Source: Elsinoe ampelina (lineage: Eukaryota). Taken from it: 50,409 nucleotides of DNA. The notes under the pieces are model-generated. The model was not told the DNA's origin. It saw nothing but the letters and a program-made list of their open reading frames with translations, and made no database searches. The stretch is taken from NCBI GenBank assembly GCA_010093995.1, contig ML992502.1, positions 1,406,711 through 1,457,119 on the forward strand. The letters run 5' to 3'. Positions 4,860-50,020 of this stretch are shown one piece after another (the first letter of the stretch is position 1; each line of letters opens with the position of its first letter). The translations under genes were made by a program, and so were the position numbers.

Positions 4860-5158
4860 TGTGGGAGACGGACGTGATGATCCAGATTGTGAGGGCTTTG
4901 TCGTCGGTCGTGAGAGCGTAGGTGGCCCGTCCGGCGGTGTGATGGGAGATGTTCGGAGGATGGAAATGCAAATGCAAGTTTCTCGAAAAGTGAGGTTAAG
5001 GCCTCAGTGATCTCAACTTTTTGCGGCAAGCTCTCTGGGTCTTGGCGCGATGTGTGGTCAAAGCTTCACTGCATCTAACACCGTTCATGTCAACCTCCGA
5101 CACGTGCATAGGTCGAATTGACCCAGGATACATCCCGACTCTCGGAAACTGACCGAAG
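4860..5158. promoter_or_regulatory. Compact (~300 bp) divergent promoter region shared by TOM20 and EXO84
   Basis: Start codons at 4859 (-) and 5159 (+) face away from each other; bidirectional activity is inferred. Confidence 0.55.
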
Positions 5159-7455
5159 ATGTCGGACGAGAAGAAGGGAATCTCCCTTCGCAAAAAGAAG
5201 GGCAGCAATCGTCCCAAGATCAGCGCCCCTCGACCGGTCCCGGAAGATGGTACACCTGGACATACCCCCGATATGGGGAGCGCGCCATTCGAGCCACCAC
5301 CACTGCAGCGTGTTGAGACGAGTCAGAGCAGCTTGCGATCAAGACCTTCCATGACAGCGGACAGGACTGCGGATCTGGTGAAGAGACGATACTCGACAAG
5401 ATTCGTGGGATACCCGCATGATGATAGACTGGCTCCTCCTATGCCGGCAATGCCGTCGCTGCCGACCGAATACCAGTCTGTCAAGTCGGCACCTCCGTCA
5501 AGAGATGGAAAGCCTCCAGAGTCAGGTGTAAAGGCGTTGAAGGTCGATATCAGGGCTTTGAGAGACCCGAACCTGAAGCCGGACCAATGTTCGTCACAAA
5601 GATATGGCAGGTAGAATAGGCACTGACATGTCCAGATATCGCTCACATACTGGCCGATGCGGACGAGCAGGATATCGCCAACTATCAGACCGAGCTGCGT
5701 AAGCTCAAGAATAGGACTTCGACGGATTTGCAGCACAATGTCTACCAGAATCGCACACAGTTCATCAAGATCTCGAAAGAAGCGGAGAAGCTAAAGACCG
5801 AGATGAGGACGTTACGAGGGCTTATGTCAGAGATGACTTCTGCTTTACATCAAGCTGCTCAGGCTGGAGGTGCTGAAGTGTCGGCCATGTCAGTCGCGGA
5901 CAGGAAGAGAGCAAATCGATCATCAGTCGCCAACCTGGAAGCACTCTGGTCAACGCAGCTGCAAGCACTGTGGAAGCGTGTGGAGGGTGCGCAAAAATAT
6001 CTGCCTGCGGTTCCTGGCCGACACATCCTATACGAATCGTCTCGCTGGGTAGAACTCAACGCGGCAACCTGGAAGCCTCGACGACGAGTACATCTCATCC
6101 TGCTAAATGACCACCTTTTAATCGCCACGGAGAAGAAGCGGGCCGAAGGTCTCCCATCGACGTCACCCAACCTCTCATCCAACCGCCGTGTCTCCATGTA
6201 CGGCGCCCACTCCGCCTCCAACCCCACCACCCTCGTAGCCGACCGCTGCTTTCCCCTCTCCGACATCACCATGTCCGACATCTCTCGCTCGGCTCCTACC
6301 CCATCAGACCCCAAACGCTCCCCCGTCAGCAACGCCATCACGGTCCGCTCCGCCACCGAATCCTTCACCTTCGCCACAGGCAACAGCAACGACTCGTCCG
6401 CCGAGAAGAACACCCTCCTAGTCTCCTTCCGCAAAGCCTCGGAAGAACTCCGCAAAACTCTCGCCCTCGAACACGGCGACCGCGAACGCCAACTCTCCGT
6501 CTCCCTCGACCTCCTCTCCCCCGCCTCGGCCGCCTCCTCCGGCGACCGCCGCGGGTCCTCCACCCGCTCCTCCCCCCTCCTGGGCTTCTCCTCGGACCGC
6601 TTCGGCGGCGGCGGCGCCATGATCGACGTCGACGGCCGGCCCCAACCCATCCGCTGGGTGGAAACCCAGATCGACGCGCTGGACATCGACATTGCCCTGC
6701 AACGCTTCGAGGACGCCGTGGCCCGGGTGGAGAAACTGCGCCGCCTCGCCCGCTCGATCCGCGGCAACGCCGCCGCGCAGGAACTCTTCCTGGCCAAGAT
6801 CGACGAGCGCGCCGGCCGCCTCGCGGCCGTCATCTGCCGGCGTCTCCGCCTGGGCTCCTCCGGCGCGGACAAGACCAGGGAAAACGCCGCCTTCCTCCTC
6901 AGGCTGGGCATGGACGACCTCGCCGTGCGCGAGTACCTCGCTTCCCGCACGCATGTCCTCCGGCAACGCACGCGCCAGCTCCCCTTCACGGGCGCGTTGG
7001 CGCCCCACGTGCGCGCGTTGAGCTACATTGTTTTCACGGTCGTGTTGCATACTTTCCGCACGTTCGCGGCGAGTTTCCAGGGGACGAATTACACTTCTGC
7101 CGTGGTCAAGTGGGCCAAGGAGAGGGTGGATGAGTTTAACGAGATGCTGGGGCGGCAGCTGAGCAGTGTGCCGCAGGGAGGCGGGTTGTGGGAGGAGTGT
7201 CTGGGGATCGCGAGGGAGCAGTGTAGGGTGCTCAAGGAGGTGGGGGTGGATTTTGAGGGGTTCGTGGGGAGGGGGATAGAGGGGATCGGGGAGGTCGGAG
7301 AGGTGACGAATGGGGTAGGAGGGTTGAGGGTTAATGGGCAGGTGAATGGAGGGCTGAGTGTACCGAGTCCGGGCGTGGAGGCAAGGAGTCCGATGGATGA
7401 GGAGGGGAGAAGGTTGGGTAGCAAAGGAGTGGGAGTTGGGAAGAGGATGTTCTGA
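5159..7455 (+). CDS. EXO84: Exocyst subunit Exo84; exons 5159-5588, 5636-7455
   Basis: Intron 5589-5635 (GTTCGT..CTGAC..CAG) joins ORFs 5159-5614 and 5728-7455. Motifs ADLVKRRYSTRF, DLQHNVYQNRTQFIKISKEAEKLK, PH-like WVELNAATWKPRR..HLILLNDHLL, and IDALDIDIALQRFEDAV. Confidence 0.93.
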
Positions 7456-7693
7456 GGGACGGCAGGTTATAAGATGTTTAACAGACACTGTCGAGAGCAA
7501 CACAATGTACTCAAAGCAGAACAGAAGCATCTTCGAAGAATGACATATCATCAATACGTGATTACCAAAAGCCTACAAACGCCTGACGACCCAACCTGAA
7601 GATGATGGAACTGCTGACCAAAAAAGTGAGATTCGTAGGGTAACGGCGACCACAGTCGCGCTCGTCAAGGTTGTGGCCAATGCCGTATCCGCA

Positions 7694-10600
7694 TTACAAG
7701 CCCAGGAATGCAAGCTGGGCAAGTACGGCAACAATCGCAAGAGGGTAGCCAGCTCCGATTTGGATCTCAACAGAGTCGGCACCAGAGTCCAAGCTAGGCG
7801 ACGAGGGAGCGGACCCTCCGCTCGGATTTTCGCCGGATCCTGAAGGACCAGTAGGAACGGCATGAGGCTTGTCGCCATGGCTGCTTGCAGAGGCCGACGA
7901 AGAAGCGGTCGAGGTCGCTGATGACGGCGAAACTCTCACTAATCCATCCTTGGCTGTCGACACCATTGACACTGCGGAGGTCGCTGCAGCTGACGGCAAT
8001 GACTCGGGATTTGCAGGGTGGTCACCTTCATTGGAACCTTGTGAGGCAGCCTGTGATGGAGTGATATTGTCACCGTTGTCATTGGCAGGACCAGCAGCTG
8101 GGACAGGTTGTGGTGTAGTAGACGATGATGGTTGGTCTTTTGCTGCGGACGGAGCTGGCCCTGGAGACTGCGAGAGAGTCGTCGTGGCAGAAGCAATCCG
8201 GACTGGCGTAAGGATTGACCATTGGATAGGATACGCCGATGGCTTGGCTGGAGATGCAGACAGAGGTACAGACGAAGTGCCCGAAGGACATGACGTTTTC
8301 GCCGTCTTGGCCGCTGGAACTGTTGAGGAGCTTGGTATCTGCACAGCAGGCGATGGCGGTGAGACCACAGCAGATGACTTTGCGGGAGGCGAAGCGGTTG
8401 AGGTGATTGTCACCGTTGGCGTAGGCCTGGTGGAAGTCAAAGTTACCACTGACGGAACCGCACTCGAGGTTGTATGGACACTGCATTGACTGCACAGCCT
8501 GGTGGTATAGGTGACAAAGCTGGTTGTACTTGTCGTGTGGTATTGCACCGCGGGAGGCTGTGGTACGACCGAGCTGGTGACGGTCACAACAGAAGAGACG
8601 ACTTTGGTAGTCGTATGCTCCGGGCAAATTGGACATCGCCGAGTTGTGAAGGTGGCGATGCTCGTCAAGGTTGTGGTGGGACGTGGGACGACAGGAATCT
8701 TTGGCGACACAATGGTATGGACAGGTACAAAGGTCGAGACTGACACGCTAATACTCGTCTTTGCCGGGCAAATTAGGCACTCACGGGTTGTGAAGGTGAC
8801 CGTCTTGGTGATAGTGACCGGATGTGGGGGCTGGACCACGGGGGTTGATGGGCGCTGGGTGCTGGCAGGCGGTCCTTTGGTCACAGTTGAAGATGTGGAG
8901 GTTAGACCTGGAAGTGTGTCAGCTTTGAAAATTCTCGAAGGCAGCTGTACTCACTGCAGGGAACAATGATCTTGGAAGTGACCGCAGATCCAGAAATCGT
9001 GTCGACCGTGAGGCTTGTCCGACCAGTGCAGCCAATCGTTGTCGGGGATGAGATAGTGGTCAAGTGCGAGGTCCCAGGACTTGGGAGTTGAATCACCGGG
9101 GTCGAGGCACTGATAATTGTCTTCGTGATGGTAGTCAAACCTCCCGGACAAGCGTGGCAGGGTATTGTCTGGTTGATGTAGACAGTGGTAGGAACCGGCT
9201 TCTCATGCATGGTGAGCGTGGTATTGGAGCCCGACATGGTAAGCGTCTTTGACAATGTGATTGGCGGTGGCATCTGGTGTAGGGTGAGCGTACTGTTGGA
9301 TCCTGACATGGTCACGGTCCTCGAGAAGGTGATGAGCGATGGCAGCGGGGTGATGGTCTTTGTGACTGTCTTCTCGATGGTGGAGTCGCCGCGGACGATC
9401 GTGCGGACCGAAGTGACGGTCAATGGCTCCGGAGTGATGAACCGCGTGGCTGGCGTCAGCGTCAAAGTGCGGTTCATTGTAATTTCCTTGGACAAGACCA
9501 TGACGGAGATTGGCGGAGTCACAGTTTCAGTGCTCGCGGACAAGGTCACGGTCTGGTTCTTGGTGACCGGCACGGATCTGACAATGGTTGAAGGATCTGG
9601 AGTGATGGTGCGAGTGACTCCGGAGCCAATGATCGTCCTGTTGTAAGTCACTGGTATTGGTTCGTGGATGGTGTATGGCCGACCAGCGCGAGTGGTTGTG
9701 ACGGTCGCGATATCAGTCTCTGTCGACACGGAGACGGTCCCGTTCTTGGTGACTGTGACTGGAGATGCAACAGTGGTCGTGAAGGTCACAGTCTCGGTCT
9801 CAGGCGCCGGAGTGAAGGTCGACACAAATGTGGATCCGTTCTTGGTGACTGTGCTGACAGGAGCGACTGTGATCGGGAAAATGACGGTCTCTGTTTCTGC
9901 AGGCTTGGTCAGAGTAGAGATGCCCGTCACTGTTGATACCAAGGTTGAGCCATTCCGTGTGAGTGTGCTGAGCGAGGTCACCGTCATAGGGACGAAGACA
10001 GTCTCGGCCCCAGTAGATTCAGTGACAGTGGAAGCAGGCTTGCTGAGGGTGACTGTCTCGCGGAGCTCCTGCGTCTTGACCTGTTGTATCGTGGTGGTAA
10101 CCAATGAAATCACCGTTGCTGTGGAGTTTGTGCCGGGCAAGGTAGAGAAGACTGTGGTCGGCACGATCGTGGTGATCGGCGGCTCGCTACGTGTGCGGGT
10201 GACGGTGTGCAGGTGGACTGATGAGGGGCTGCTGACTGAGACGGTGAGGGTTTCCTTGACAATGGTGTAGCTGATGGATGGCACTGTGACGGTATGTGGT
10301 GGATTATGCACCGTCTGTGTCTTGGTCTCGAAAAGTGTCGTCACCGGCGGGACAGTCTTTGTCAATATTCTTCGAGTAGTATCACCACCGTGGAGAGTCA
10401 CTGTTCTGGTTCCGAGTAGTAGCGTCGTTGTCTTTCCAATCGTCTCCGTCTCGGTCGTTCGTGTAAGACGTCCGCCATCCAGCGTGGTGGTTCGGCTTTC
10501 GGTGGTGACGGTACCAGCAATGATGGTGGAGGTTTTGGTGGTCAAAACGATATGCCCAGTGACAGTTCTGGTGGAGCCTGTAATGGGAAGTTTCACTGTC

Positions 10601-14496: not shown

Positions 14497-16455
14497 CTCC
14501 TTTACTCCACGTCATGCATCGGCTCTTCCCTGTCATGTCTGGGTCGAGATGCAGAGTGACGCTGAAAGGGGGCCACGGACGATCGGGGCTGAATAGGACG
14601 TGGTCAGAGCTGTGCAGGCTCTACAGGAGCCATATTGACGTGCAGCTGAGGAAGAAGAAACATGGTTGATGCTTTTGGGCTGAGCTGGAGCTGAACTCTG
14701 TAGCATGAGAAGAGAGAGTACTGTAGCGCGCATGGGCCGGGCGAGCCCTCGAGGAGCGCAAGCGGGTTTTCGCTTGTGACAAAGTCCAAATGTGTGCGAG
14801 CTGGGGACGCTCGGAGACTTTTTTTTTCTACTGGACTATTACAGTGCAAGGAGTTCGAGAAATGGTGTGCACAGCATGGTGATTCTGTGGTTGCACCATG
14901 CCATTGATGACACGGAGACCGAGGCCGTGATCAGCTTCTGTCGTTAATGGTATTGATGCAGGAAGCATTGCCGGGTATAATGCGACCAAGGCACGGTGAC
15001 TCGCTCGCAACATCTGCGATCATACAGTGGCACAGCATGCCCTTTAAGCATACGAACCCAGCAGACCGGGCAGTGGTGGAAAATACGCCGCTTGCTCACC
15101 ACTGGGTACCTAGTGGCCGTTGCAACAAATTGCCTGCCCTACCTGCCATGATTCTTCGACAATGCTGTGCGTCAGATCTGCCGTGGGTCGATATTGACCT
15201 GATCTTTGATGAGAGTCATGGTCCTGCGACCACCGGTACGCAACCGAAGTCGATGTGAGTTCTGGTCCGACAGGCGCAGAGGGCAAGGGAATCATGGACG
15301 GTTCGGTTGCAGGCGGAGCGAGCGATCGGGCGCCGTCAATGAATCAGGGTCAGTGAGGGATGCTGGGCGTTGAAATGGTCGTGTCAAGATTGTTTGGTAT
15401 GGGAAATGCACTACGATGAGGCATTGACATGCGAACCAGGCATGGACACGAGCGAGGAGGCCTCGGGAATGCCTCATTACTCGGCATTGAGCTGGGTCAG
15501 GCTGACGGATGTGGTGTATGAGCTGTCATGAGTTGCATGCTCTGTCACTCTCCGGTCGTGTATTTTGGGTGGGCGCGTGATGGTCGTCCTCCATTCGCAG
15601 CATCTGTAGTGTTGTTTCCCACCACCCGCCGGAGAAGGCTTTTCAATTCTAGGAGTGCGTTTTCTCAACCATGGAAAGAGTGAACCCCTACTTTGCGCAA
15701 GCCGGAAAAGTATGGTAAGCTAGACGTGATGATATATGCATGTATAGCCTATTTTCTTGTCGCCGCAACTGCGGCGTTACAGAGACGTTTGTAGTTGGGT
15801 ACCACGACAAATGCATGAGATGAGCCACTGCAGGATGCTCGTCATGCCTGCTTTGAGCAGATGTGTCCGAGTCAGTTGCCCGCATGCCAATGGTGGTCAC
15901 GGGAGTGGCTTCAGCAAATCTTCGATGCAATGGAAAGCCGTCTGTCGGAGAAGGCGAGGCCAGACAGGGATATGCAGGTCTGGAGAACTGGTTGTGTCAT
16001 TTCCCTAGTGTCTCAGACTCCAAAGAATGCTGGGCTTGAAGCTGAGATAAATGATGCAGCATAGACCAATTGGACAATTCCATTGATGCGGGCTGACAGG
16101 CGGGCTGAAAGCTGATCAGCGACTGGTCTCTTACCGGGCCTTTTTGGGTTGATCTACGGTCTTCTTAGATCGAGAAAGACGACGGGCGAGATACGGCCGT
16201 CAGGAATACAGTGAGGCTGATGGTGGTCTGTGAGAAATGGGCGCTTCGCGCCGTGGCTAAAGGACCGTCAGGAACGGACCGGCTGCGCTGTCGTCTACAG
16301 TTCAACCGAGCCACCCCGGGCTTGGCGTGTTGTACTCCGCGTCGACCTCTCGTCATTAAATTTGGCTAGCCAGAAGTCCATAGAGAATACCGATAAATTG
16401 AAGCTGAAAAAAGGTGTAATAGTTGCTATACTACTCTAATTAGGTTATCACTGTT

Positions 16456-17463
16456 ATAGTTAATTATTAGATAGCTAAATTGAAACTAGTAGACGTGTAG
16501 TTCTTACTTACTAAAGAGTATACTAATTGTGCTATTTATGCTACTACTAAGGTAGCTAGAGCTATAATCCGCTAAATTCGACTATTCCTTAAGTTCTTTA
16601 GCACTTCTTATTCTTCTATTAAAGCTTATATACTATNNNNNNNNNNNNNNNNNNNNNNNNNNNNNNNNNNNNNNNNNNNNNNNNNNNNNNNNNNNNNNNN
16701 NNNNNNNNNNNNNNNNNNNNNNNNNNNNNNNNNNNNNNNNNNNNNNNNNNNNNNNNNNNNNNNNNNNNNNNNNNNNNNNNNNNNNNNNNNNNNNNNNNNN
16801 NNNNNNNNNNNNNNNNNNNNNNNNNNNNNNNNNNNNNNNNNNNNNNNNNNNNNNNNNNNNNNNNNNNNNNNNNNNNNNNNNNNNNNNNNNNNNNNNNNNN
16901 NNNNNNNNNNNNNNNNNNNNNNNNNNNNNNNNNNNNNNNNNNNNNNNNNNNNNNNNNNNNNNNNNNNNNNNNNNNNNNNNNNNNNNNNNNNNNNNNNNNN
17001 NNNNNNNNNNNNNNNNNNNNNNNNNNNNNNNNNNNNNNNNNNNNNNNNNNNNNNNNNNNNNTTACTAGCTATTACTATTAATAGCTATCTCTCTAGTACC
17101 TTAATCTACTATAGATTAATTACTAGTAAGATCTTTATTAGCTAGCTAATAGATATAATAATACTAGAGCTTCTAGCTAGTATAATCTTCGTTATAGATA
17201 ATACTTTAATTTACTAAAGCGATAAGGTAAAGAAGCTAGTATAAGAGCATAGAAGTTACCTTAAATACCTACTACTCTATTTGCTAGATTTTAATTCTAT
17301 TAAGTAATTCTTCTTAGTACTAAAGGCGTAGGTAAAGTAATACTATAATCTAGTCGCTAGGTACAAGGAATACGCTAATTTCTTAGAGCTAGCTATTTAC
17401 TTATATAGCGGACTATACGCTAAGGTGCACTTTAAGAGCTATAGATATAGCGTAAGGTTATAG
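16456..17463 (+). pseudogene. Fossil Tc1-like DDE transposase (~335 codons, interrupted by the assembly gap)
   Basis: Reversing RIP changes gives VMDNASIH (D codon 17197) and YLPPYSPDFNPIE (17266-17304), with exactly 34 residues between D and E, then FSVLKAWVKRH...HFKSCGY. The N-terminus gives an HTH-like IRRIRLSLEFFGTPYPP. Start position approximate. Confidence 0.88.
16637..17061. other. Assembly gap (425 N) inside the transposase
   Basis: Run of N, typical of a collapsed multicopy repeat. Confidence 1.
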
Positions 17464-17496
17464 GGGATCTATTTAGTACATAAGAAATTACTTATG

Positions 17497-19419
17497 TTAA
17501 ATAAGTTTAATACTAAGACCTAGTAAAAACTCTTTACTACTACTACAACTACTCTATACTATATATATACTACTCCGAGTTAGATAAACTAAGTCTAGTT
17601 TAGTAGCCGAACTAGATTAATATCTATCTTAGCTGCCGAGCTAGTTAAATTATCTATTACGCTACGTAAATTAGTATCTATATTAGCTACTATAAACTAG
17701 GTAAAAGTGTCTATTTCGACTACTAAGATAGTAAGGTATCTAACTTACTTAATTTGATCTAGCTTGTGTAACTATCTTAGAGTGATACTAGCGCTTAAAA
17801 GGGCTAATTTAGCTTTAAATCCGGTATAGAAGGCCTTTATTAAAGACCTAGGTATCTCTCTACCTATTTAAGCGTATATCTCTTACGCTGTCGAGGTTGT
17901 AATTCTCCTTCTTTAGCTTAAATTTAACCTAATCTAGCACCTAAATATCTCTTTTAAAGCTTCTTTTTCTCTTTATCTACTTAAAGAATTTAGTTAAAAC
18001 TTTATAAGAGTTAGTCTTAGAAGTAATAGGTAAGGATCTTAAGTCGTTTATAGGCCCTAAGCGCTACTATAGCTAGTAAGGAGTAATTAAGTTTATAATA
18101 TTAATATAGTTAATAGGTGTCAGAGGAAGTATAAAAGGCACTAAAGACACTAAAGGCGTTAGTGTTAATAGTATTAGTAAAGCGCTTTTAATACTCCTTA
18201 AGGCCTTTAAGCAATTAAGGCTTAATATAAGGCCTATAGAAGAATAATTAATAGTAGCTTTACTATTATAAATAGTAGTAGCCTAGGTATACTTATTCTC
18301 TATTACAATCTAGTAGTACTTACTAGTTAATATATACTAGTATAACCTCTTATAGTTATAGTAATTACAATTAGTACAAGTCTATACCAACTCTAATAGA
18401 GGCTCCTTATTACTATTTACACCCTCGAGTACACTATATAATTAGCTTATTACTAAGCCTTAACCTTATAATAGTAGCGCTAGCTATACTACCTACGAAG
18501 ATAGTAGTATTATACTAGCTACTAGAGTCTATACTATTCTTACTAGCGTCGATCTAAGGGAGGATTACTATAAAGGCAGTAGTAGTAGACCTATTAAAGA
18601 GCTTAGAACTAGTATAGTTAAAGGTAGTTATATAACTCTTAAATTTGCTATAGAGTTTATAGCTATTAGTACCTTCTTTATCTCGGTAGTAAGGCCGAGC
18701 CTAAGCTACTAGTAATCCTTAGTAAGCTAATCTTTAAGCTTATTAACTAGCCTCTATATCTTAGCTAGCTCTAATATTACTACTCTAAATAGCTACTATA
18801 TACTAAGACGCTTATAGGTAGTAGTATAATTAAGTAAAAGTAGCTCGAGTATAGCTTAAGTAATAAGACTACTCTTCTCTACTACCTAATTAGCTAGTAC
18901 TAACTACGATAGATTACTTAGCTAGCTAAATATATACTTGTTATAGTATAGAGTCTTACTTCCAAGCTTTACTACTAGCCTTACCTCTACTATCTAACTA
19001 AGATAAAGTATATATAAGTCGCTAGGATTAGTCTCTAGTAACTCTAGCACTTACGATAACTATAGTACCTCTATTACCTATATATCTAGCTCTTCCTTCG
19101 GTACTATATCTAACTTAATTAACTGCCTTAGCTAGTCTAGTACAGGTGTTAGAAACCTTAATTAAAGAGACAGCTACTAAGATCTAGCTTATAAAGGTAG
19201 TATAACTTAGTTTATAGCTTACTCTATAAGCCTCTAAAGAGCTAGGTTAGTAGATGTAACCTCTAGATAAGGTGCTACCTACGCTAGCGCTAGTGTATAG
19301 CTCTTTAGCTAGATAGTTAGACTACGACAAAGGTTATCTAGTACCTTCTCTAATAAGCTTAAGGAGTACCTTAAAGAAGAAGAGACTAGTAGTAATAATA
19401 GAGAAGTAAAGAATATTAT
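17497..19419 (-). pseudogene. Fossil second ORF of the transposon (~640 codons), unknown function
   Basis: One reading frame gives protein-like sequence throughout when TAA/TAG are read back to CAA/CAG/TGG. Contains a Cys/His cluster at ~18384-18241 and a helical LRSSPI..VLTEFFEW..YNLDSVR..GLLYRIQSQISPFKR region at ~18045-17790. Ends approximate. Confidence 0.65.
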
Positions 19420-33583: not shown

Positions 33584-34003
33584 GGTGGAAGAGCTTTGCG
33601 GTGCGTTCAGTGTCAAGTCGCAATTGGTGTCTGATATTGCGGCTCTATAGCTGTCGGATCACACAAGGAGGTGTCGTGTGATTTGGGGTGGGCGGACGCA
33701 ATTTATCGTCTGTCGGTGCTGAGAGTCTCGATTGAGGGGTCGATGGCGCTTGAAAGATGCAAGTTGGGGGGGCGGGTGATCGGGCTTGAGGCTGCAGAGT
33801 CAATGGACGGGGATGGGATTCAGCTTGAATTGATGATGATGTGGGATGGTGTCTCGAAGCAGCAGCTCTGTGTTTGGGGAGAACTGGTCCGTGCACGTGC
33901 CCGCCGCTGATGTTCGCAGGAGGCAATATTTCTCAACGACGACGTTTTCACAATCCCATCACTGCCTTTCGGACGATCCTCATCGTAGGTTGTAAAAGTT
34001 TCA

Positions 34004-35038
34004 TTATCTTCGAACAGAAGACAGCTCATTGATATCTACTCCCATCTTTTCAAACCTCTTCTTCTCATAAGTCTTGGTGGCGATCCAATTCGATGCAATC
34101 ATGCACAGCGCGATCACAACTATCAGTCCGCTTAAGATGACCAGTGACACTATGCTAAAGACGGTGAAGCCGTAGCTAGCATTCTGAAAGCTTGCATTCC
34201 CAGCCAACCTCTCTGTTGCAATCCCAAGCTGCATGGCGCTGATGACAACAACCACAAAGGCAAACACCAAGCTGAGATATGCAAAATTATCTCGTAGCCA
34301 GTCGTCGTACGATGATGGGCTCCCGATCGAGGAGAATCCTCGGAAAATATGTCCTTTGCCGTACTTGTAGACCTTGTTCAGTCGCGGCATTCTCAGCTCG
34401 CCATACCAGTACCGCGGATTGACTGATTGGTAAGTGTGGTTGGTAAGGTATTCCTCGCACAGGATTCTCCAGGACGACCAGTCAACTTCCTCGGGAATCA
34501 AGAATTTCTCCTTTGCTATCTGAAAATCGGACTCGTAAGCGATGAGCGCTGTGTACGAGAAGAGGAGCCCACGAGCACAAGCAGCCAGATCATCAACGCT
34601 GGCAGTGTATGTTCCCTGAACAGTCGATTGACCATGCATTTTCAAGGCATGATCGTTTAGACTACCACTTCCATTCGGATCAGATAGGTGCGTCCTCCAG
34701 AAACCAGGATGCAAAAGGTAAGCTGGGAGGGGTTTGAGGTAAATCTTGTCGCTAGCCCATACACAGTGATGGTCGGCCTCTTCAGCTATGGTGATTTCTC
34801 GCCCGAGCAAGACCTGCTTGTGGAGTGGTCTCGGTGGCATCGGTCTTCCACATATCCAGAGATGTTTCCGGATTGCATCAATTCTCGGGATGAGCAGTTC
34901 ATTCTCGAGGAAGACACGGGTGTCCGATTGACTCGGCGAGACGATGTGGTCCCCTCTCATACGGTGGGACGCTGGAAGCAGTGTAGAGAGATCGACTTGC
35001 CATTCTTTAAGAGGGCAGGTCTCGAAAGGAGACTCCAT
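34004..35038 (-). CDS. Uncharacterised fungal protein with two C-terminal TM helices, resembling DUF6601
   Basis: Motifs LWICGRPMPPRPLHKQ..REI.I.E, IYLKPLPAYLL, ARGLLFSYTALIAYESDF.IA, RYWYGELRMPRLNKVY and VVISAMQLGIAT; two hydrophobic helices near the C-terminus. Family assignment is from recall, not a search. Confidence 0.75.
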   Translation of the reverse strand: MESPFETCPLKEWQVDLSTLLPASHRMRGDHIVSPSQSDTRVFLENELLIPRIDAIRKHLWICGRPMPPRPLHKQVLLGREITIAEEADHHCVWASDKIYLKPLPAYLLHPGFWRTHLSDPNGSGSLNDHALKMHGQSTVQGTYTASVDDLAACARGLLFSYTALIAYESDFQIAKEKFLIPEEVDWSSWRILCEEYLTNHTYQSVNPRYWYGELRMPRLNKVYKYGKGHIFRGFSSIGSPSSYDDWLRDNFAYLSLVFAFVVVVISAMQLGIATERLAGNASFQNASYGFTVFSIVSLVILSGLIVVIALCMIASNWIATKTYEKKRFEKMGVDINELSSVRR

Positions 35039-35584
35039 GACTGCAGCTACTCGACTTGTCACGAATGAGACTTATCATTCTGCCAGCTGTGGTCGACTTC
35101 TTGAATGTGGATGGTCAAGTCCTCAGCTGAAGAGCTGAAAGCTTCAACGACCAATGATGTATTTTTAGGCCTTCTTGAATCTCACCTACATTAGTCGCTA
35201 TCGACTAGCACAGATGGGGCCAAAGTTTGACAATTGTGGCGTTGAAAAGCACCCCCACAGATCGCGTTGCGCCCTTCTTCCTTGCCTACTCTTTAGCAGT
35301 AACCTTCCAGCCAGTCCTGTTCATGTCAGACATTTGATCATGCCCACCACTAGTAATGCCACAATGCCATTTCCTACATTCGGCAGATATTCTGCAAGGC
35401 CGGCGACCGCAATCTCGGCAGGTCGCCATACTCTTCTCAGCTGCACCCAGGTAGGACGCACGAGTTTATCCAGTCGAGGCTAGCCAGCAGCTACATAACC
35501 ACGTCAGCTTCCCAATGCACAGCATAAAGATACTAATCGCATGGATGACTCCATGTGCTTTCGTGTTTCACCACTACATGCGAC

Positions 35585-38500
35585 ATGGCAGAAAAGCCCA
35601 AGAAGGATCTGTCCATCATCAGGCATGGTCTGGATGTGCTTCACAATCCGGACCAAGCTGATGTAGAGTATGCGATGACGCTGTGCGACTTGTCCAGGTT
35701 TCTAACATACTATCAGTGTCATAGCCGTTCCTGGATTGGGAGCGCATCCCCGCGACAGCTGGAAATCGATGGACGGCAAAGCTTTCAACTGGCTCATCAG
35801 CGAGGATGGCATACGTCGAGACCTTCGGAAAGCCCGCATCATGCTCTATCAGTATGGTTCAGCGTGGGTGGGCTCACTCAAGGTGACACAATTCCTTAGT
35901 GGCATTGCAGCCCATATGCTTGCCGACCTGATGGTACTCCGAAAGGACTGCAGGAAGCGACCTATCGTATTCATCGGGCATAGTATGGGAGGACTGGTCA
36001 TTGCGAAAGTAGTATGCATTGCGGATGCCCAGAAAGAAAAGTTCCCCAGCATCTTCGAATCAATTTCCGGCTCTCTATTCTTCGGCACGCCTTTCCATGG
36101 TGCTCCGGTGGCAGCCATTGCAGCGATGCTCTCCCAAGTCGGCACTTATATGAACCAGACTGTTGCCTCGAAGTTGCTGGAGCTGATGACCCCCGGCAAC
36201 GAGGCTTTAGATGAGCTCCGCATGGAATTCGTCAGGCTGTCGAATAGAGGAAGTACCAAGATTAGCCTGTGCTGTTTCTGGGAGATCCACGAGACTAATG
36301 CCTCGGACTTTGCTGGACTAGACAAGACCAGTATCACGGCGAAGATCTTCAATACCGTCATACCAAACGTACGCTTGCCCTTCATCCTCCTGCCCTCGCG
36401 AGCTAATGGTCACAGTCACTTGTCAAATTCGTAGATCGCGACTCTGCGAGCTTGGAGGGAGTCACCCGTTATGGACTTGAGAAGAATCACAGAGATTTGG
36501 TCAGATACGAAAGTCTGACGGATGAGAAGTTTAGAGTACCTCGAGAAGAGATCAGAAGCATGGTCCGCGATGCTCCGTCGATTGCCAAGGGACGCCATAA
36601 CGCAGCTCGGACTATCGATCGCGAGCAGTACAACAGCATCATGGAGGTACTAGAAGGTATCAATGTCCGAAAGCACCGAGAAGGCCTAAAGAAGAATGTA
36701 GCAGCCTCGTCATGGCTAAATAAAGAAGACGACTACCAGATCTGGAGACACGGCCAAGAAGGCATTCGCCATGAAAACAATATGGATGGTCTCTGGATCA
36801 GAGGCACACAAGGTCGAGGCAAAACCGGAGTCAGCATAGCCGCACTGGACGACCTGGACACGTACATCAGAGACATTCAAGATCCCAACCAGGCGGCCAT
36901 ACTGCTGGCCTATTTCTTTTGCGACTCGTCCAAAGAGTGCGGTACCGCAGAGGAATTGCTCAAATCCATCATCCGGCAGCTCATCCGGCAGCAAGAAGCT
37001 TTGGCGATATACACTAAGAACTTTGTCAAGTCGAAGAGTGGTTCAGGATCGGAAGTAAAGACGCTTGCCTCGGTGAACAGTGTCGAGAATCTCTGGCTCT
37101 GCTTACAGGAAATGCTTACGGACGATTCAGTCGGCGGAGTCTATTTCGTCATCAATAATCTTCATGCACTACCAGAGAGCGCTGACAGTACGAAGAAGCT
37201 GCTCGGTATGCTTCGACATGAGATGGAGCTGGTGGATAACCAGGAGGAGCAACGAGTTCCAATCCGATGGCTCATCACCAGTCAGGATACTCATAGTATC
37301 AGAATCAACCTCGGCTGGGAAGGTGTCCGATTAGTTGACTTGGAGGACATGAAGTACGAAGATTCTGTCAAGGCGGAGCTGCGCAAGCATGCACAGAAGA
37401 AAGTCACAGCACTACGTGATGAGAAGCACTATAACAAAGCGCTTGCATACTTTGCGAGCAGTCTTATTGGAAAGCGTGCACAGAATACCCAATGGATCGA
37501 CATCACCTGCCAACATCTCGCCGGCCTGTCGGGCGCTGATACGGCATACGAAGTTCGAAGAGTTTTAGAGAAGATACCTCAGGACCTGACCGAGCTTCTC
37601 AATCGATCATGGTTACAGATCCTGCAAGGACTCGGTGTAGAAGCGGAGAAGGTCAAGGAGATGCTAAGGAGCCTTGCACTGTCCTTTGATGACCCGATCG
37701 ATGCAGAGCTTGCCCTTCTGTCAGGCCTGGACACCACTGAAGACGACTGTGCGAAGATCCGCAGCTGGGCCGAGAGCTGTAAGCCACTACTGGTAGTCAA
37801 AGCGACCAAGACGACACACAAAATCACATTCTTGAACGAGGTAGTGAAAGCTCATCTGCAGCAGAACGGGGCATTTCTTCTTGGGCTCTCTGAAGAAGAG
37901 AAGAGGTGGCAACATGGTATACTGTCGTTCCGGTGTTACGAGCACTTGGCAGACACCTTGAAAATCGAGCAGCCGCAGGAGGAGAACCAGGATAACGACG
38001 ATCCCGAGGATTCACCTACAGACGAGGTGCCGGATGACGCGGCCGAGGTGGCTTCAGTCGCCCAGTCCGTAGCTATTCCGACCAGACCAGCATCGGCTGC
38101 ATCAGCTCTGGCCCCGATGTCTGTGGCAGTATCGCAGATTCCCGAGGAAGATGAGCCAGACATAGCCAGCAATGTAGATTCAGTCAAGGAGATAGATGCT
38201 ACAGAAGCTCCTCGAGAACAGGGTTCAGATGAGCAGAAACAGGTCTTGGAACAAGTCCAGGCGACGCTTGAGGACGACACAGACTCGGACACAGAAGTAG
38301 TTCTGCATAATGACGAAACAGCTAACGCTGATTCTGGTTCATTGGACTACGCTGTCAGACATTGGCTCCATCACGCAAGCAAAGCGACTCCGGAAATTGC
38401 GGAGGAGCTAAGTCAGGAAGTCGCTTTTTGGGGACCAGGCTCCCTTCTGCGACTCGCCTGGATCAAGCAATACGAGAAGCTCACCGACTGTTATGTAGGC

Positions 38501-40489
38501 TTCGATGCGCTCGATCGAAGCTTGTTGACAGGGCTGCACATAGCAGCATCATTCGGCTTCAGGCAGCTCGTCGCAAGTCTGCTAGCAAATGGGCATATGG
38601 ATGAGCTCAATGTTCGTGAGAATATGAGTAACGCACCTGTAAGAATCCTGCCTACTGCAGGCTGTTCTCCACCCCTGATGACCGCGAATCGTGCTGACCT
38701 TTTTAGCTGCACTTTGCCGCTACCTACGGTAGGCTGAACACAGTCGAGATTCTTCTCAATGCTGGAGCCAGCTATGATGATGGTATTGAAGTACGAGATC
38801 AGACCCCACTCTCGATGGCCGCCGGTGAAGGTCACGTGGCGGTGATGCAAAAGCTGCTAGATCGAGGAGCTGACCCAAAAGCCGAATCTGATTCATGGGG
38901 TCCAGTCATCAACAACGCGATCTATTCTGGCAGTCAGGACGCAGTCAAGCTTCTATTGGAATACGGCGCCACACTGGATGCTAGTGACAAAGCAGAAGAT
39001 CGTCCACTCGCCATCGCAGCTGCTTCGGCTGATCAACAGATGTTCAACAAACTCCTCGAATTGTTCACTGATAGTATCCCAGCCAAGGAATACAGTACTG
39101 CACTCATCTGGGCTTCTCGAGCAGGCCGTTTGGAGGCGGTCAGGACCTTGTTGAGCCACTCTCATGAGTTGACGACGCTGCAAGATGCCTTGGAAAGTGC
39201 TGAGTGGCAATCTGAATGGGATGTGGTGAAGCTACTGCTTGGCAGTACACAAGGTCTCAATTGCAACCGAGTACTGGAAGCTGCTGTGGATGACCCTCTG
39301 GACCTTGACGAGGTGCTACAAGCGATTCACAACCATGTCGACGGAGTCGTCGATGAAGCAACGATTAACGCTGGTCTGTACAACGCGACCGACAAGGAGA
39401 AGCTGTCGACTGTACAAATCTTGATCGACACATTCCATGCAGTACCCGATTCAGCGTTAGGGACTGAGTATGCCGCGTCGATTTGGTGACACGAATCATG
39501 CTAACATGCACAGGTACGGCAATGCTTTGACAGCTTCCGCCTTTGACGGCACTGTGGACATTGCCAGAATTCTCATCGCCGCAGGAGCAGACGTAAATTC
39601 GTCCAGTGGATGGGCGCTGCAATGTGCCGCAGGTCGTGGACACACGGAGATGGTGACTCTGCTTTTGGAGCATGGAGCGGACATCAACGCCGTCCACAAG
39701 GGAGACATCTATAATGGTACAGCACTATTGGCTGCAGTCTGGGAGGGACTGGACTCAATGGTTGAGCTGCTCCTCGAGCACGGTGCAGACCCAGATCTTG
39801 GTGACGAGGAGATTTCGCCCGTTATAGCTGCACCAAGGAACAGTGAAGGACCTATCATGGAACGACTCGTCCAAGCCAATGCAAAATTGCATGGATTTGG
39901 CGGGCCTGATAAATCGACAGCTCTCATCAATGCGGCAGCTACACTTCCGACACGCTACCTCGATGTATTATTGGACGCCGGTGCAGATATAAACCTACCA
40001 GATAATGACGGGGATACGGCATTGATAGTTGCGGCTCGGGTCAACGACGATGATCTGATCAGAACGTTGCTTCGCAGAGGAGCCGATGTTCTTGCGGTCA
40101 ACAAGAATGGTAAGAATGCCTTGCAAGAAGCCGTTGCCCAGGGCTTCACTAGTTGTGTGGAGGTCTTGACCCAGCACATTTCTTCGATAATGGCAACCTT
40201 AGCTACCGCCATCACCGAGGGAAATGAACCTGTCAAGGAGATCATGAAGAATGCAGCAGCGAAAGCGGTCGAGGAGCAAATACAAGCTGAGCAAAAGACC
40301 GACTCTGTGGTCGAAGACCCGGATGCAAACGCAGCAACGCATGATGGTGTAGACGGGGACAAGACGGCAGATCCGATTGCAGTCGCCGACGATGATCAGA
40401 CTCAACAGCATGAAGGTGATGAAGAGTCGGCAATTGGCGTGGCTGCTGACGCACATTCAGACGATGAAACGACGGAAGACGATCAGTAA
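35585..40489 (+). CDS. Fungal NLR-like protein: SesB-like alpha/beta-hydrolase + NACHT + ankyrin repeats (~1564 aa); exons 35585-35667, 35717-36368, 36416-38638, 38707-39467, 39514-40489
   Basis: Four canonical introns join five ORF fragments in frame. Hydrolase motifs DVIAVPGLGAHP, IVFIGHSMGGLVI, FFGTPFHG and NHRDLV; Walker A LWIRGTQGRGKT and LAYFFCD; many ankyrin repeats (GLHIAASFG, TPLSMAAGEGH, WALQCAAGRGH, GDTALIVAA). Confidence 0.9.
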
Positions 40490-41252
40490 GGCCATGTCTG
40501 GTGCGACATCCCACCCTAGCACATGTGAGGTTAGCAAAAGACGGTTGCTAGAAGGCCGGACTTCAACGACGACATGACACAATGGACTGCTAGCCAGATA
40601 GTATGCGGGACCTAATAGTTGGAGGCTCCGGTAGTTTCGAAGAGCAACGGCTATGTACATTGGGGTCAGAGATATCGAAGCTTTTCTCCCCGAACTGCAA
40701 TGCCAAAGCTGATCAACGATAAGGCGCAACGTGCGTCAGCTTATCGACCATAAAGCACATCGGTGGAAAAGCCACAGTGACGAAAGTGCGTGATGTCTCT
40801 TGCGGGCAACGAGGCCCCGAAAGGCTAAAGCGGTTTAACAAGCATGACAAGCACGTGGCCGTTGCCTTGCCCGGGCGGGAGATGCCATTGTGGGTCCGGT
40901 TTGCCGACGTCGGGGGGCCCTGCCTCTTACTTTTTACAGTAACCACGACCCGTTGCACCGTCCTTCCCATTCACTCACTGCCTCGCCCATTCCAGTCCAA
41001 CGTCTCGACCCCTTGGTTTTTAAGCACCACGTCAATCTTGTCGACCGTTGGCTGCCGCTCCGCCGGCATTGACACGCGTTCAACGAGACATGCAACGTCG
41101 AAACATCTAATAGATTGGGAGCGGCTCTTCTTGGGCTGCGTTACCCTTCTCAGGTAGATATACTGTGCCGTGTCTGCCATTCCTTGCAATTGTGCAATGC
41201 TCTCATTCGTCATATCACCATTCTAGGGCTATAACTCACAGACGTAGACAAG

Positions 41253-47199: not shown

Positions 47200-50020
47200 T
47201 CATACAGCGCCTCTGGCCACCAACAGACTCACGAGCTCCGTTCTGCCCTCGGCAAGTGCCAGACATGTCTTCCCATGATTATCGACTGCCTTGACATTAG
47301 CGCCAGACTCAATGAGCCTCCTAGAGCAAGCCTCCGAGTGCATATTGTTGTATGACAGTGCCAAAAGCAAGGGTGTTTGGCCATATTTATTCCTTGCCTC
47401 GACATCGATATCCGGACGCTTCAAGAGGTACGGCAGACATTGACCTGCGTGCCACCAATACTTTCCCCTGGATACGTAGTGGAGAACCGTTGGTGCGTCC
47501 TGAATGTTTTCCTCATCGTCCGCATATGTAGGGTATCCGAGTTCATCGAGGTCGGGCACATAGTCATACACCTCGTTGATGTCAACCTGCGTGGTTTCGA
47601 CCAGGAATCGTACGACCTCAATATTTGACAATTCTCGCTGAACAGCTGTGAAGAGAAGTGGCTTGTCCCGTGTGACGGAAGGAAGAGAAGGATCATGGGG
47701 TTCAGAGGCCCGATGGTTGTGCTTGATAGCATCTGTAACATGATCGGCTACGTTCTGTAGTACCTCTGAGAAGCCGAGGGACACAAGTAGGTGAAAATTC
47801 GAGGTCTGGCGAGCCGGATCTACCCATGTGAGAACTTGAGGATGCGATTCGATCAGGAACTCGACTAGTGACAAATGCCTTTGTCGAAGTAACATGGTGA
47901 AATATCGCCAGGCGTGCGCCCCAGCACAATTTTGTAGGATGGTACGCATGCTTTTGTCTCGATCATCGATAATCGTCAGGGTTGGCCACAAATAGGACGA
48001 TGAATTGTATACTGTTCCGACGGTCCTCCACCAGTGACTCCATCGCATGGCCAGGAAACTTTGGAGCACAACTGACTCTGGCCTGTATCTGCTCAGATCC
48101 ATGTCGCTCGGCGCACCCAGGTCAGATGCAGTCAAGCCAAGTTGCGCTGCCCGATCCTGAATCGCATCAAAGATACCACTCAGTCTGGCAGTATCCTCTT
48201 CGTGCCGCAGAGCGATGCCTGTATCAATTTCCCGAGAGTACTTCTGCTTGGCATGTGGCAATGCTGGCCTCCCACAATCTTCCAGAGTGAGTCCTTTTGT
48301 CGCAGGTGCAATGTGATCCGTGGCTTCATATGGAGATCCAAAGTCATATTGATCATGAGATCCTCAAATAGCTGCACTGGTCGTATTCTCCCAAAGCTTC
48401 TGCTCCTCGTCATATTCTGAGCATGTCCACAGTGGTGTGCGGCCCTTGCAATCACGAGCTGTTATATCTGCACCTTCATCCAGCAGTAATGTGACGCTCT
48501 CCACTCGACCAGACCGGCAGGCATGATGAAGTGGTGTCCGTCCCGTACAATCCCTGGAATTGACAAGCTCGGCGAATCGTGAAGGCATGACCTTCCTCTG
48601 GTGCTCAAGTAGTGTCCCGAGAGCATTGGCTTGACGGCAACGAGCAGCCAGGTGTAAGCATGTGAGGCCCTGGTGGGTGAGAATAGAAGCATCCGAACCT
48701 GCCCGCAGTAGTCTCTCGACCATCACCTCCGAGCAAGTACACGCGAGGTGAAGCGGCGTGATACCCTGCAGATCTTGAACATCGAGGTCGTCTGCTTTAT
48801 CAAATACAATGGCAACTGCTTCGTCCCAACCATTCTGCTGCACACCAGTCCAAGCACAGAGACAGTGGAGAGGAGTGCGACCAGCCACGTTGCGACTACT
48901 CATATCGAGGCCCCATGACAAAAGAATGTCGGTTTCTCTGACGTTGAGGTCGAATTTTGACATGGCTACATGGAGCAAGGTGTTACCACGAAAGTCAACC
49001 GCTTCAGGTGATGCCCCATGCCTAACAAAAGCCCGAAGAGTATCTTCCTGGAAGTTCAAGCCTGGAACACCCGTCAACTTGTGCAGAATCGTCCTTCCAT
49101 GACTATCCCGAGTGTCGACAGAAGCACCAAGAGCAATAGCACCCTCAACATCAGCCAAACTCATGCAGTACAGGCGTGAGATGTAAGACATCAGCCAAGT
49201 CTCACCAGCACGATCCTGGGCTTCCAGATCGGCGCCGCAGCTAATGAGAAACTCCACGACAGTCGTGCCACCCAAGCGGGCGTAGTGAAGAGGTGTTCGA
49301 CCTCTATAGTCTCTCGCATGGATATCCGCGCCAGCATGCAACAACGCTTGGAGAACACTGATGTCGGCATCGCTGATCTGCCGGACCGCCCTGTGTAGTG
49401 GCGTGTCACCGCGATGGTTCCTCTCGTTGGGGTCGAATCCGTCCTTGACGAGTCTCGAAACAATACTGTGCCCAATCCTGCGACATGGTGTATCTCGCAG
49501 TATCATCAGGAGTGGGCCATCACCTGTCGCAGTGTCTCTGATCGTACATTGCGGACCATTCAATAATGCCAGAATTTGCTCACCGTGCGGCGTCCGAGAG
49601 GGAGATATCAGTATCTTCATCAACTCTTTGCAGGTCCCATCCAGGCAACCATCCATTTCGCTCTCATTCGACTTTGTATCTTGTTGGGCTATGGTAGAAT
49701 AGCTTGTAGAGAAGGATTACCTGGGGCGGAAGTGCTGCTATACCAAGTGCGTGCGGATCATCATGCGGTGTCCCAGATTGGACGTCCGTCCATGAACTGT
49801 GCCTCACGTTCTGTCCTTGAGAGCTGATTCTCCGGAAGAGCAAATTGGATTAAGCATAGTGTCCGTTCGCGTCCAGCCATACTTTTGGGGTGATTCATAA
49901 AGGGCGGCGCGAACGATCTGAGTTGGCGTCACCACCAGACCACAGTCACCAAACGCATGAGTTTTCTCTACCACAACGCCGGCGTATTAGGAGCTGTGCC
50001 ATTGCATCATGATCAAAATG
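47200..50020 (-). pseudogene. Degenerating ankyrin-repeat protein gene
   Basis: ORFs 48364-49656 and 47200-48261 are in the same frame, separated by one TGA (48366-48364). Many ankyrin repeats (GDTPLHRAV, GRTPLHYA, GITPLHLAC, GRTPLHHAC, GQTPLLLAL). Further in-frame stops at 49719, 49740 and 49806, and an apparent frameshift near 49981. 5' limit uncertain. Confidence 0.75.

Follow-up and report, generated by a model that had tools for sequence, protein, structure and literature searches.

Recurrent pairing of a DUF6601 membrane-protein gene with a lipase-NACHT-ankyrin NLR gene suggests an undescribed two-gene unit of filamentous ascomycetes

Several described systems place a gene for a nucleotide-binding oligomerization domain-like receptor (NLR) beside the gene of a partner. 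In plants, linkage of the head-to-head NLR pairs RGA4/RGA5 and RRS1/RPS4 is thought to keep active and restraining partners together. In fungi, SBP and the sesA/sesB/het-eN locus of Nectria haematococca bring a sesB-type lipase side by side with a membrane-targeting protein and an NLR. Known two-gene clusters of Podospora anserina, het-S/nwd2 and HELLP/PNT1, consist of an NLR gene and the gene of a membrane-acting partner (PMC12881547, PMC9815663). A three-gene cluster, HELLP/SBP/PNT1, is described in Chaetomium globosum, and fungal gasdermin/protease-NLR two-gene clusters join a membrane-acting protein to an NLR-like sensor (PMC12881547). Typical fungal NLRs are described as polymorphic, shaped by birth-and-death evolution, and often endowed with internally conserved repeats (PMC4986451). 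Here, we analyze a divergent gene pair of Elsinoe ampelina: one gene encodes a protein of the Pfam family DUF6601, the other an NLR with lipase, NACHT, and ankyrin parts. Both lie in a stretch of 50,409 nucleotides (GenBank assembly GCA_010093995.1, contig ML992502.1, positions 1,406,711 to 1,457,119 of the forward strand), and this whole stretch is referred to as the window.

Our analysis suggests that the DUF6601/NLR pair is an undescribed two-gene unit, and comparison of sequences makes it likely that the two products are functional partners. An earlier note, made from the letters of the window alone, had put forward the membrane protein as a partner of the NLR and had named recurrent linkage in other genomes as the test beforehand. 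The linkage does recur, and the idea of a partner stands to that extent; the picture of lineage-specific accessory genes does not, since the two genes form a conserved orthologous pair.

Environmental sequences provide the first line of evidence. A metagenome scan with a DUF6601 alignment gave 12 loci (L001-L012), of whose 185 stop-to-stop open reading frames (ORFs; at least 110 amino acids, aa) 170 were scanned against Pfam; residues 1-330 of the NLR were also searched against the loci with tblastn. The pair stands head to head in six of the 12 contigs with DUF6601 (L002, L004, L005, L006, L007, and L011), where, upstream and divergent, either a DUF676/abhydrolase ORF is present or the NLR N-terminus is matched by tblastn. 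In L002, L005, and L007, NPHP3_N and ankyrin ORFs come after the hydrolase; in L011, where the hydrolase match is weak, only NPHP3_N does; contigs L004 and L006 end after the hydrolase. Four further contigs (L001, L003, L008, and L010) hold less than ~600 bp upstream of DUF6601 and cannot tell. Pairwise identity among the DUF6601 proteins of the 12 loci, and between them and that of the window, is 42-57%, except for L004/L005 at 78%; the NLR ORFs are 40-51% identical. The contigs, which span 46-63% G+C, do not come from one species.

Annotated genomes provide the second. We compared the best 120 DUF6601 relatives, with their source names, to the best 120 long relatives of the window's NACHT exon. 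Sixteen species with serial locus tags occur in both lists and, among the matches listed, the DUF6601 and NLR numbers are neighbors in 14 of the 16, with a step of one in 13 species and of two in 1; this route shows neighboring numbers, not orientation. The tags are PG997_014070/71, PG991_014396/95, PG993_014155/54, Daesc_004670/69, AAE478_005024/22, Uu.00g089940/50, CkaCkLH20_00410/09, CH063_00302/03, CORC01_09449/50, FZEAL_3093/94, and ACHAPT_009045/46, together with TWF506_003309/10, TWF281_003024/25, and TWF696_005661/62 from Orbiliomycetes. The taxa represented are Xylariales, Apiospora, Colletotrichum, Fusarium, and Orbiliomycetes. JGI-style numbers were left out because they are not positional. 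The size of the longest contig reported for each protein serves as a proxy for a shared contig, not as proof of adjacency: it is equal for both proteins in 31 of 38 shared names (among the matches listed) and in 3 of 3 names from a set of DUF6601 relatives longer than 602 aa, and one such contig measures only 11,395 bp (Fusarium albosuccineum). Sordariales genomes carry on average 56 NLRs among ~10,600 genes (PMC12258605), so an NLR is a rare neighbor by chance. Chance adjacency at a boundary between core and accessory genes is ruled out by the recurrence in other genomes, and we assign it a negligible probability.

The outer flanks of the pair vary. The gene downstream of DUF6601 is Metallophos in the window, Alg13 GT28_C in Colletotrichum, Epimerase in L002, and Hce2 in L007; further outer flanks include HET (Hypoxylon) and a Zn-cluster-type factor/Fungal_trans (Paramyrothecium). 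A published table of the KK-1 cluster flank in Curvularia clavata lists a DUF6601 ORF with an ankyrin ORF on one side and an NB-ARC/TPR gene on the other (PMC10512319). Three side observations concern these surroundings: the Hypoxylon gene model P0124 merges DUF6601 with a HET domain, L002 carries a HET-domain ORF 7.5 kb downstream (18464-19138, minus strand), and L006 carries a CorA-like ORF (4685-5212, plus strand; E 3.5e-10) 2.5 kb downstream of DUF6601 and unrelated in sequence to it.

A second arrangement is found among the longest relatives. In 3 of 7 DUF6601 relatives above 602 aa, from Colletotrichum musicola, Fusarium graminearum, and F. austroamericanum, the gene model combines DUF6601, an alpha/beta hydrolase, a NACHT domain of family PF05729, and HEAT repeats. 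The hydrolase of these HEAT-type models is 27% identical to that of the window over ~290 aa (E 4.5e-22 and 4.2e-26). In the two Fusarium models the linkers differ and the DUF6601 part lacks its end; for these reasons, the merged models are probably two tandem genes fused by gene prediction. Fused or not, they show a second, same-strand arrangement. A hydrophobic, helix-like stretch was noticed just before the lipase domain of these merged models, at residues ~345-385 of P0125 and just upstream of the hydrolase in P0126 and P0127; the HEAT-type NLR paralogue may, as far as its sequence indicates, itself be membrane-anchored. The Ncp protein of Penicillium herquei also has a PF05729 NACHT domain, with no link to DUF6601 or a lipase stated in the portion of the source covered (PMC13311144).

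Maximum likelihood applied to 135 DUF6601 sequences, from which L011, L012, and the duplicate P0001 were excluded, gave a tree that places the two arrangements in separate clades. One large clade branches according to taxonomy (Orbiliomycetes, Colletotrichum, Fusarium, and Xylariales groups), and rows with evidence of an ankyrin-type (ANK-type) neighbor are scattered over the whole of it; the exact place of the window within this clade is unsure because its own branch is long (1.09). A sister clade, with a Shimodaira-Hasegawa-like approximate likelihood ratio test (SH-aLRT) value of 99, comprises L009 and the three HEAT-type models. Since the nucleotide-binding (NB) and repeat types differ between ANK-type and HEAT-type neighbors, the constant neighbor of DUF6601 is the sesB-like lipase end.

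The DUF6601 gene of the window has a coding sequence (CDS) at 34004-35038 on the minus strand, defined by an ORF with a PF20246 match and encoding 344 aa. Its transcript was assembled unspliced as record 1 of X1, a public run whose kind is not on record (33991..35080, minus strand, with adapter letters past both ends); a second contig, X3 record 11, covers 33986-35071. Membership of PF20246 is clear (E 6.9e-81, 271.9 bits vs a cutoff of 27), with residues 42-298 matching profile positions 3-239 of 240. The protein comprises a soluble N-domain (residues ~1-241; 34316..35038, minus strand), delimited by alignment invariants and the domain model, and a C-terminal membrane hairpin (34046..34315, minus strand), supported by AlphaFold2 secondary structure and the sequence. 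The N-domain contains the invariant motifs CGRPMPPRPLH and NPRYWYGELRLSRLN (consensus forms), and the family is strongly conserved, at 45-49% mean column identity with long invariant motifs. The AlphaFold2 model, built on 31 homologues, has a predicted local distance difference test (pLDDT) score of 75.2. In it, two long helices, 242-273 and 282-331, come after an N-domain of mixed alpha/beta structure; together with their hydrophobic runs, they agree with the soluble N-terminal domain and C-terminal hairpin read earlier from the letters. The first hairpin helix carries a conserved Gln, the short loop between the hydrophobic runs has two N-x-S sequons (residues 281 and 286), and a tail rich in K/R (basic) follows the hairpin. 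The N-domain is predicted to lie on the cytosolic side. Under the positive-inside rule of membrane topology, the N-domain and the tail would both be cytosolic and the loop lumenal or outside.

Structure searches found no solved fold that matches the DUF6601 N-domain. Modeled alone, this domain folds with good confidence, at a pLDDT of 82.5 and a predicted template modeling score (pTM) of 0.81. Foldseek gave no PDB match at E<=0.001 for the full model or the N-domain model, and VIA-align gave a best Z of 2.7 for the N-domain, with 0 of 48,161 chains at Z>=5; an absent structural match is no proof of a new fold. A wide VIA-align search with the full model returned only generic helical hairpins (best Z 8.2 over residues 240-317), and an ESM Atlas search returned unnamed clusters only (best score 0.75). 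A pattern scan of prokaryote genomes with the DUF6601 alignment gave 16 pattern matches and 0 confirmed relatives. In the portions of the literature covered, DUF6601/PF20246 appears in a single table entry, that of the KK-1 cluster (PMC10512319); a search of papers for the locus tags found none. Many DUF6601 proteins bear names such as glycosyltransferase family 28, Alg13, or subtilisin-like serine protease (P0005, P0019, P0039, P0043, P0047, P0070, P0076, and others). Because P0032 and P0122 carry DUF6601 followed by a downstream Alg13 GT28_C domain, such names are probably inherited from merged gene models. Alg13 was not found among the ORFs scanned at 40.4-45.9 kb of the window, and it would not fit into the 420 bp that separate DUF6601 from the phosphatase gene.

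These features bear on the possibility that DUF6601 is itself the executioner: a death effector, pore-forming or channel-like, that the NLR would activate in the way NWD2 activates HET-S. Its membrane hairpin, with the conserved Gln in the first helix, and its position beside an NLR would suit such a role, and the earlier note had likened the topology to CorA-like or pore-forming effectors. That likeness was not borne out. At E<=0.01, Pfam finds only PF20246 and a sub-threshold DUF996 match in the window DUF6601 protein, and no HeLo, HeLo-like, SesA (PF17107), or CorA (PF01544) domain; residues 239-334 match generic helical hairpins only. The structure prediction for which that note had called yielded a model whose N-domain matches no solved fold and which shows no sign of a known pore-forming fold. 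Local alignment of the 60-aa termini revealed no motif shared between the NLR N-terminus and the DUF6601 termini in the window, Daldinia, Orbilia, and Apiospora pairs (scores 17-32, equalled or beaten by 18 to 455 of 500 shuffles), and hence no terminal motif able to pass a signal in 4 of 4 pairs. Moreover, the NLR already has an effector domain of its own, and DUF6601 is predicted to be constitutively membrane-anchored, which known latent pore formers are not. We regard an executioner role as highly improbable.

The NLR gene occupies 35585..40489 on the plus strand and encodes 1564 aa, as supported by a spliced contig and an open frame. Record 2 of X1 (4838 nt) aligns in blocks 35576-35667, 35717-36368, 36416-38638, 38707-39467, and 39514-40600, from which the CDS exons are 35585-35667, 35717-36368, 36416-38638, 38707-39467, and 39514-40489. 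The skips at 35668-35716, 36369-36415, 38639-38706, and 39468-39513 (49, 47, 68, and 46 nt) are all of the GT..AG type; with four of them in one contig, the contig is as expected of spliced mRNA, and the last joint is also present in X2 and X3. The joined exons (4695 nt) read as 1564 aa with a single terminal stop, and one spliced contig joins all NLR parts: effector, NB, and C-terminal repeats, the tripartite fungal NLR architecture, lie in one polypeptide. Together with the Pfam domains, this spliced frame upholds the earlier assignment as a lipase-NACHT-ankyrin NLR.

Three domains make up this polypeptide. A sesB-like alpha/beta-hydrolase (DUF676/PGAP1-like) effector domain, recognized by Pfam and the motif GHSMGG, lies at 35717..36580 (plus strand, including intron 2 at 36369-36415). 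The DUF676 match scores 22.7-22.8 bits vs a cutoff of 20.3, and PGAP1 and Abhydrolase_6 fall under their own cutoffs. The nucleophile motif GHSMGG lies at residue 115, and H131, S132, M133, G134, G135, and a downstream H282 (P0131 numbering) are invariant in 28 of 28 orthologues; the domain thereby has both the G-x-S-x-G elbow and the conserved His of the sesB-like/DUF676 type. A NACHT domain of the NPHP3_N type (36710..37282, plus strand; E 3.4e-16, 60.3 bits vs a cutoff of 24.8) has an intact Walker A, GTQGRGKT, at residue 375, and G395, G397, and K398 of the P-loop are invariant in 28 of 28 orthologues. The ankyrin-repeat domain, identified by Pfam Ank families and alignment, spans exons 4-5 (38707..40180, plus strand, including intron 4 at 39468-39513), with Ank_2 up to E 4.9e-45 (152.5 bits vs a cutoff of 27.3).

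The whole NLR is conserved. The best 120 relatives listed have 1464-2099 aa, share the same domains, and are 35-51% identical; from Orbiliomycetes to Sordariomycetes, the orthogroup keeps 38-50% identity along its full length, and the protein of Orbilia brochopaga is 45.5% identical over 1493 aa. Across 28 aligned orthologues, mean column identity is 43%, and invariant columns occur in the hydrolase, in the P-loop, and all through the ankyrin repeats. Tandem Repeats Finder (minimum score 30) found no array in the ankyrin-coding DNA (38700-40489) and two short arrays only, of ~2 copies each, in the rest of the gene; internally homogenized repeats of the het-e/het-d/nwd type (at least ~85% between units) were not seen in the window NLR. 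Purifying selection is strong on both genes. Judged by these alignments, the NLR is a conserved orthogroup and not a typical, hypervariable accessory NLR. The features of a non-self-recognition NLR that had been proposed were thus lacking on two counts: there are no internally conserved repeats and no terminal motif common to both proteins. The suggestion that the pair sits where housekeeping genes give way to accessory ones holds in its first half: IPK, Clp1, Exo84, PI31, a MYST acetyltransferase, and the Metallophos phosphatase precede the pair. The pair itself is deeply conserved, not accessory.

The NACHT domain departs from its consensus at one site. Walker B follows hhhhD..DE, with acidic residues. 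At its expected place (37141-37182, residues ~488-501), between Walker A and the LITS motif and inside the NPHP3_N match, the window NLR has VYFVINNLHALPES, without acidic residues; the Walker B place itself reads VYFVINNLH. In the N-N-L-H found there, N503 is invariant and H505 at least 90% conserved (28 orthologues); HEAT-type relatives have a canonical FILDGWDEV at the same site. The site is placed by where it falls within the Pfam match: a PDB sequence search with the NACHT region gave a chance match only (E 0.036), so no solved NACHT could be used for alignment. The composition of the site suggests a NACHT domain that may bind nucleotide without normal hydrolysis.

Such a domain invites a guard or antidote model, in which the ankyrin domain binds the cytosolic domain of DUF6601 and the NLR is held off until damage, modification, or loss of DUF6601 frees the lipase; linkage would be tight because the NLR is auto-active without DUF6601. 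In signal transduction ATPases with numerous domains (STAND proteins) that lack Walker B acids, a locked nucleotide state is favored and an external brake would be needed, and plants are known to have closely linked head-to-head pairs in which one member is auto-active. The Walker B place without acids (invariant N503) agrees with this model, as does the similar conservation of the DUF6601 N-domain and the ankyrin repeats (mean column identity 44-49% vs 43%). Against it, the sister clade retains the same lipase with HEAT repeats and another NACHT type, so that the lipase end is constant and the repeats are not. We consider the guard or antidote model unlikely, including the auto-activity that it supposes.

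The two genes are separated by a divergent intergenic region and putative bidirectional promoter (35039..35584), 546 bp between the start codons at 35038 (minus strand) and 35585 (plus strand), close to the ~550 bp of the initial reading. No assembled contig covers 35244-35467 within it. Related head-to-head loci have a spacing of ~375-1150 bp, estimated from tblastn matches with assumed exon/intron offsets, and by this estimate a short divergent spacer is kept in 6 of 6 such loci. A k-mer comparison of spacers identified TGGGGCCAAA (35215..35224, plus strand), a short shared motif and weak candidate cis-element. GGCCAA occurs in 6 of 6 intergenic regions, and TGGGG(G)CCAAA in 4 of 6 (window, L002, L004, and L005) in mixed orientation, vs a shuffled expectation of 0.05-0.4. 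One 7-mer was seen in at least five of six spacers (shuffled mean 0.07) and two 8-mers in at least four of six (shuffled mean 0.05, maximum 1), the null model being a mononucleotide shuffle only. The shared motif is a weak hint of shared regulation.

This spacer raises the possibility that linkage is regulatory only: a shared bidirectional promoter or chromatin context would be hard to break, and the products would serve unrelated processes. The short spacer kept in six head-to-head loci and the weak shared motif are in keeping with this, as is the report that divergent pairs are in general more conserved than other gene neighbors (PMC2871058). The HEAT clade speaks against it: in this separate DUF6601 clade, the same lipase type accompanies another NB/repeat scaffold in a same-strand tandem arrangement, which a shared divergent promoter cannot explain. 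The adjacency of a DUF6601 ORF to an NB-ARC/TPR gene in Curvularia clavata also argues against it (PMC10512319). We judge purely regulatory linkage to be quite improbable.

Several points weigh against a functional partnership. Most of the adjacency is one ancestral arrangement that has been inherited, so the species counts are not independent; independent support comes from the persistence of the pair over deep divergence with changing flanks and from the second arrangement of the HEAT clade. The merged DUF6601 and NLR models may have been fused by gene prediction and correspond to no real protein. The tags are not neighboring in F66182 and O1611, both fragmented assemblies with small contigs, and the longest-contig sizes differ in 7 of the 38 shared names. 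Among the metagenome loci, L012, whose DUF6601 relative is 42% identical, lacks an NLR over 10 kb of upstream and 3 kb of downstream sequence. L009 likewise lacks one over 10 kb of upstream sequence; as a member of the HEAT clade, where the NLR is expected downstream, and with a contig that ends ~640 bp after the gene, it is uninformative and not negative. Finally, strong purifying selection and unhomogenized repeats are as compatible with housekeeping as with immunity. As a separate observation on L012, its DUF6601 gene is split over two frames, and an ORF 2 kb upstream (6965-8041, plus strand) matches MLKL_N (24.2 bits) and SesA (20.4 bits) weakly, below threshold; both are membrane-targeting death-domain types.

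On the partnership reading, the pair would be a two-gene unit of filamentous ascomycetes, old and passed on by vertical descent, with a bidirectional promoter of ~0.4-1.1 kb driving both genes. DUF6601 would be its membrane-anchored partner, built of a cytosolic N-domain and a two-helix hairpin, and the NLR would be a STAND protein of the cytosol that carries a sesB-like lipase at its N-terminus, then NACHT and ankyrin repeats. DUF6601 may mark or prepare a membrane and tether or license the lipase of the NLR there. Once the NACHT-ankyrin part switches on and oligomerizes, the lipase would hydrolyze lipids of the DUF6601 membrane, with regulated cell death or a membrane-stress response as the outcome. 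Linkage would be kept because one gene would be useless or harmful without the other. The particular mechanism, in which DUF6601 tethers or licenses the lipase at a membrane, is a tentative proposal; for the combined statement of partnership and mechanism, we lean slightly in favor. A role of the pair in cell death or immunity is an inference.

Three considerations would put the DUF6601 contact at the lipase end. Of all NLR parts, only the lipase is shared by ANK-type and HEAT-type neighbors; the sesB-like domain is the one N-terminal domain reported to combine with all NB types (PMC12258605); and DUF6601 stands at the 5' end of the NLR gene in both arrangements. A complex prediction for the Daldinia proteins, with P0131 residues 1-330 (the lipase) and P0045 residues 1-235, scored 0.00 in both runs; it ran without alignments and with an uncertain partner fold, and counts neither for nor against binding. 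A broader version is doubtful though possible: a membrane-surveillance module found throughout Pezizomycotina, in which DUF6601 would be the fixed receptor or guardee, a NACHT lacking Walker B would be a nucleotide-locked scaffold, and the lipase would be released onto the membrane that DUF6601 marks. If true, it would amount to a conserved innate switch for cell death or membrane repair, separate from the fungal amyloid and gasdermin routes and as old as filamentous ascomycetes, with a DUF6601 fold not yet among solved structures.

Elsewhere in the window, two features were recorded. At 16001-19000, the G+C content is 28-31% vs 50-60% elsewhere, with overlapping ORFs in many frames at 16.57-17.15 kb; this block may be a degraded repeat or a relic resembling repeat-induced point mutation (RIP). 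At 47200-49716 on the minus strand, there is a second ankyrin-repeat gene, with adjoining ORFs of 387 and 450 aa and Ank_2 up to E 1.4e-50, and no NB domain was seen near it within the window.

If the partnership holds, it has several implications. NLRs with sesB-like lipases are among the commonest fungal NLR types, and in the portions of the literature surveyed they have no assigned partner, target, or trigger. A partner like DUF6601 goes unmentioned in the covered text of two NLR surveys, a Sordariales study (PMC12258605), and a 2025 review. A partner kept at the lipase end from Orbiliomycetes to Sordariomycetes, on two NB/repeat scaffolds, would be a genetically tractable handle. The pair would also give DUF6601 its first biological context, and it indicates that some fungal NLR genes fall outside the fast-evolving, accessory kind.

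The described systems share parts of this design. As in plant RGA4/RGA5 and RRS1/RPS4, a divergent pair stands on a short shared promoter, putative here; unlike there, the partner is a small membrane protein and not an NLR. The gasdermin/protease-NLR clusters are likewise two-gene units of a membrane protein and a neighboring NLR, whereas the present pair lacks gasdermin and protease domains and has an effector with lipase chemistry. With HELLP/SBP/PNT1 and sesA/sesB/het-eN, the locus shares the joint encoding of a sesB-type lipase, a membrane protein, and an NLR. In those clusters, the lipase is separate and recruited via an amyloid motif; here, it is fused to the NLR, and the neighbor is DUF6601 instead of SesA or a HeLo-like protein. 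As in het-S/nwd2 and HELLP/PNT1, a fungal NLR gene directly adjoins the gene of a membrane-acting partner. Unlike in those clusters, that partner is a predicted constitutive two-helix membrane protein of unmatched fold with no HeLo or HeLo-like domain, no terminal motif links it to the NLR, the NLR has a lipase effector of its own, and the pair is kept across classes instead of being patchy or polymorphic. Within the NLRs themselves, the window protein has a sesB-like/T-NACHT/ANK architecture, to which sesB-like/N-NACHT/HEAT is a related fungal architecture. Unlike typical fungal NLRs, its orthogroup is conserved over its full length, with unhomogenized repeats and N-N-L-H at the Walker B place.

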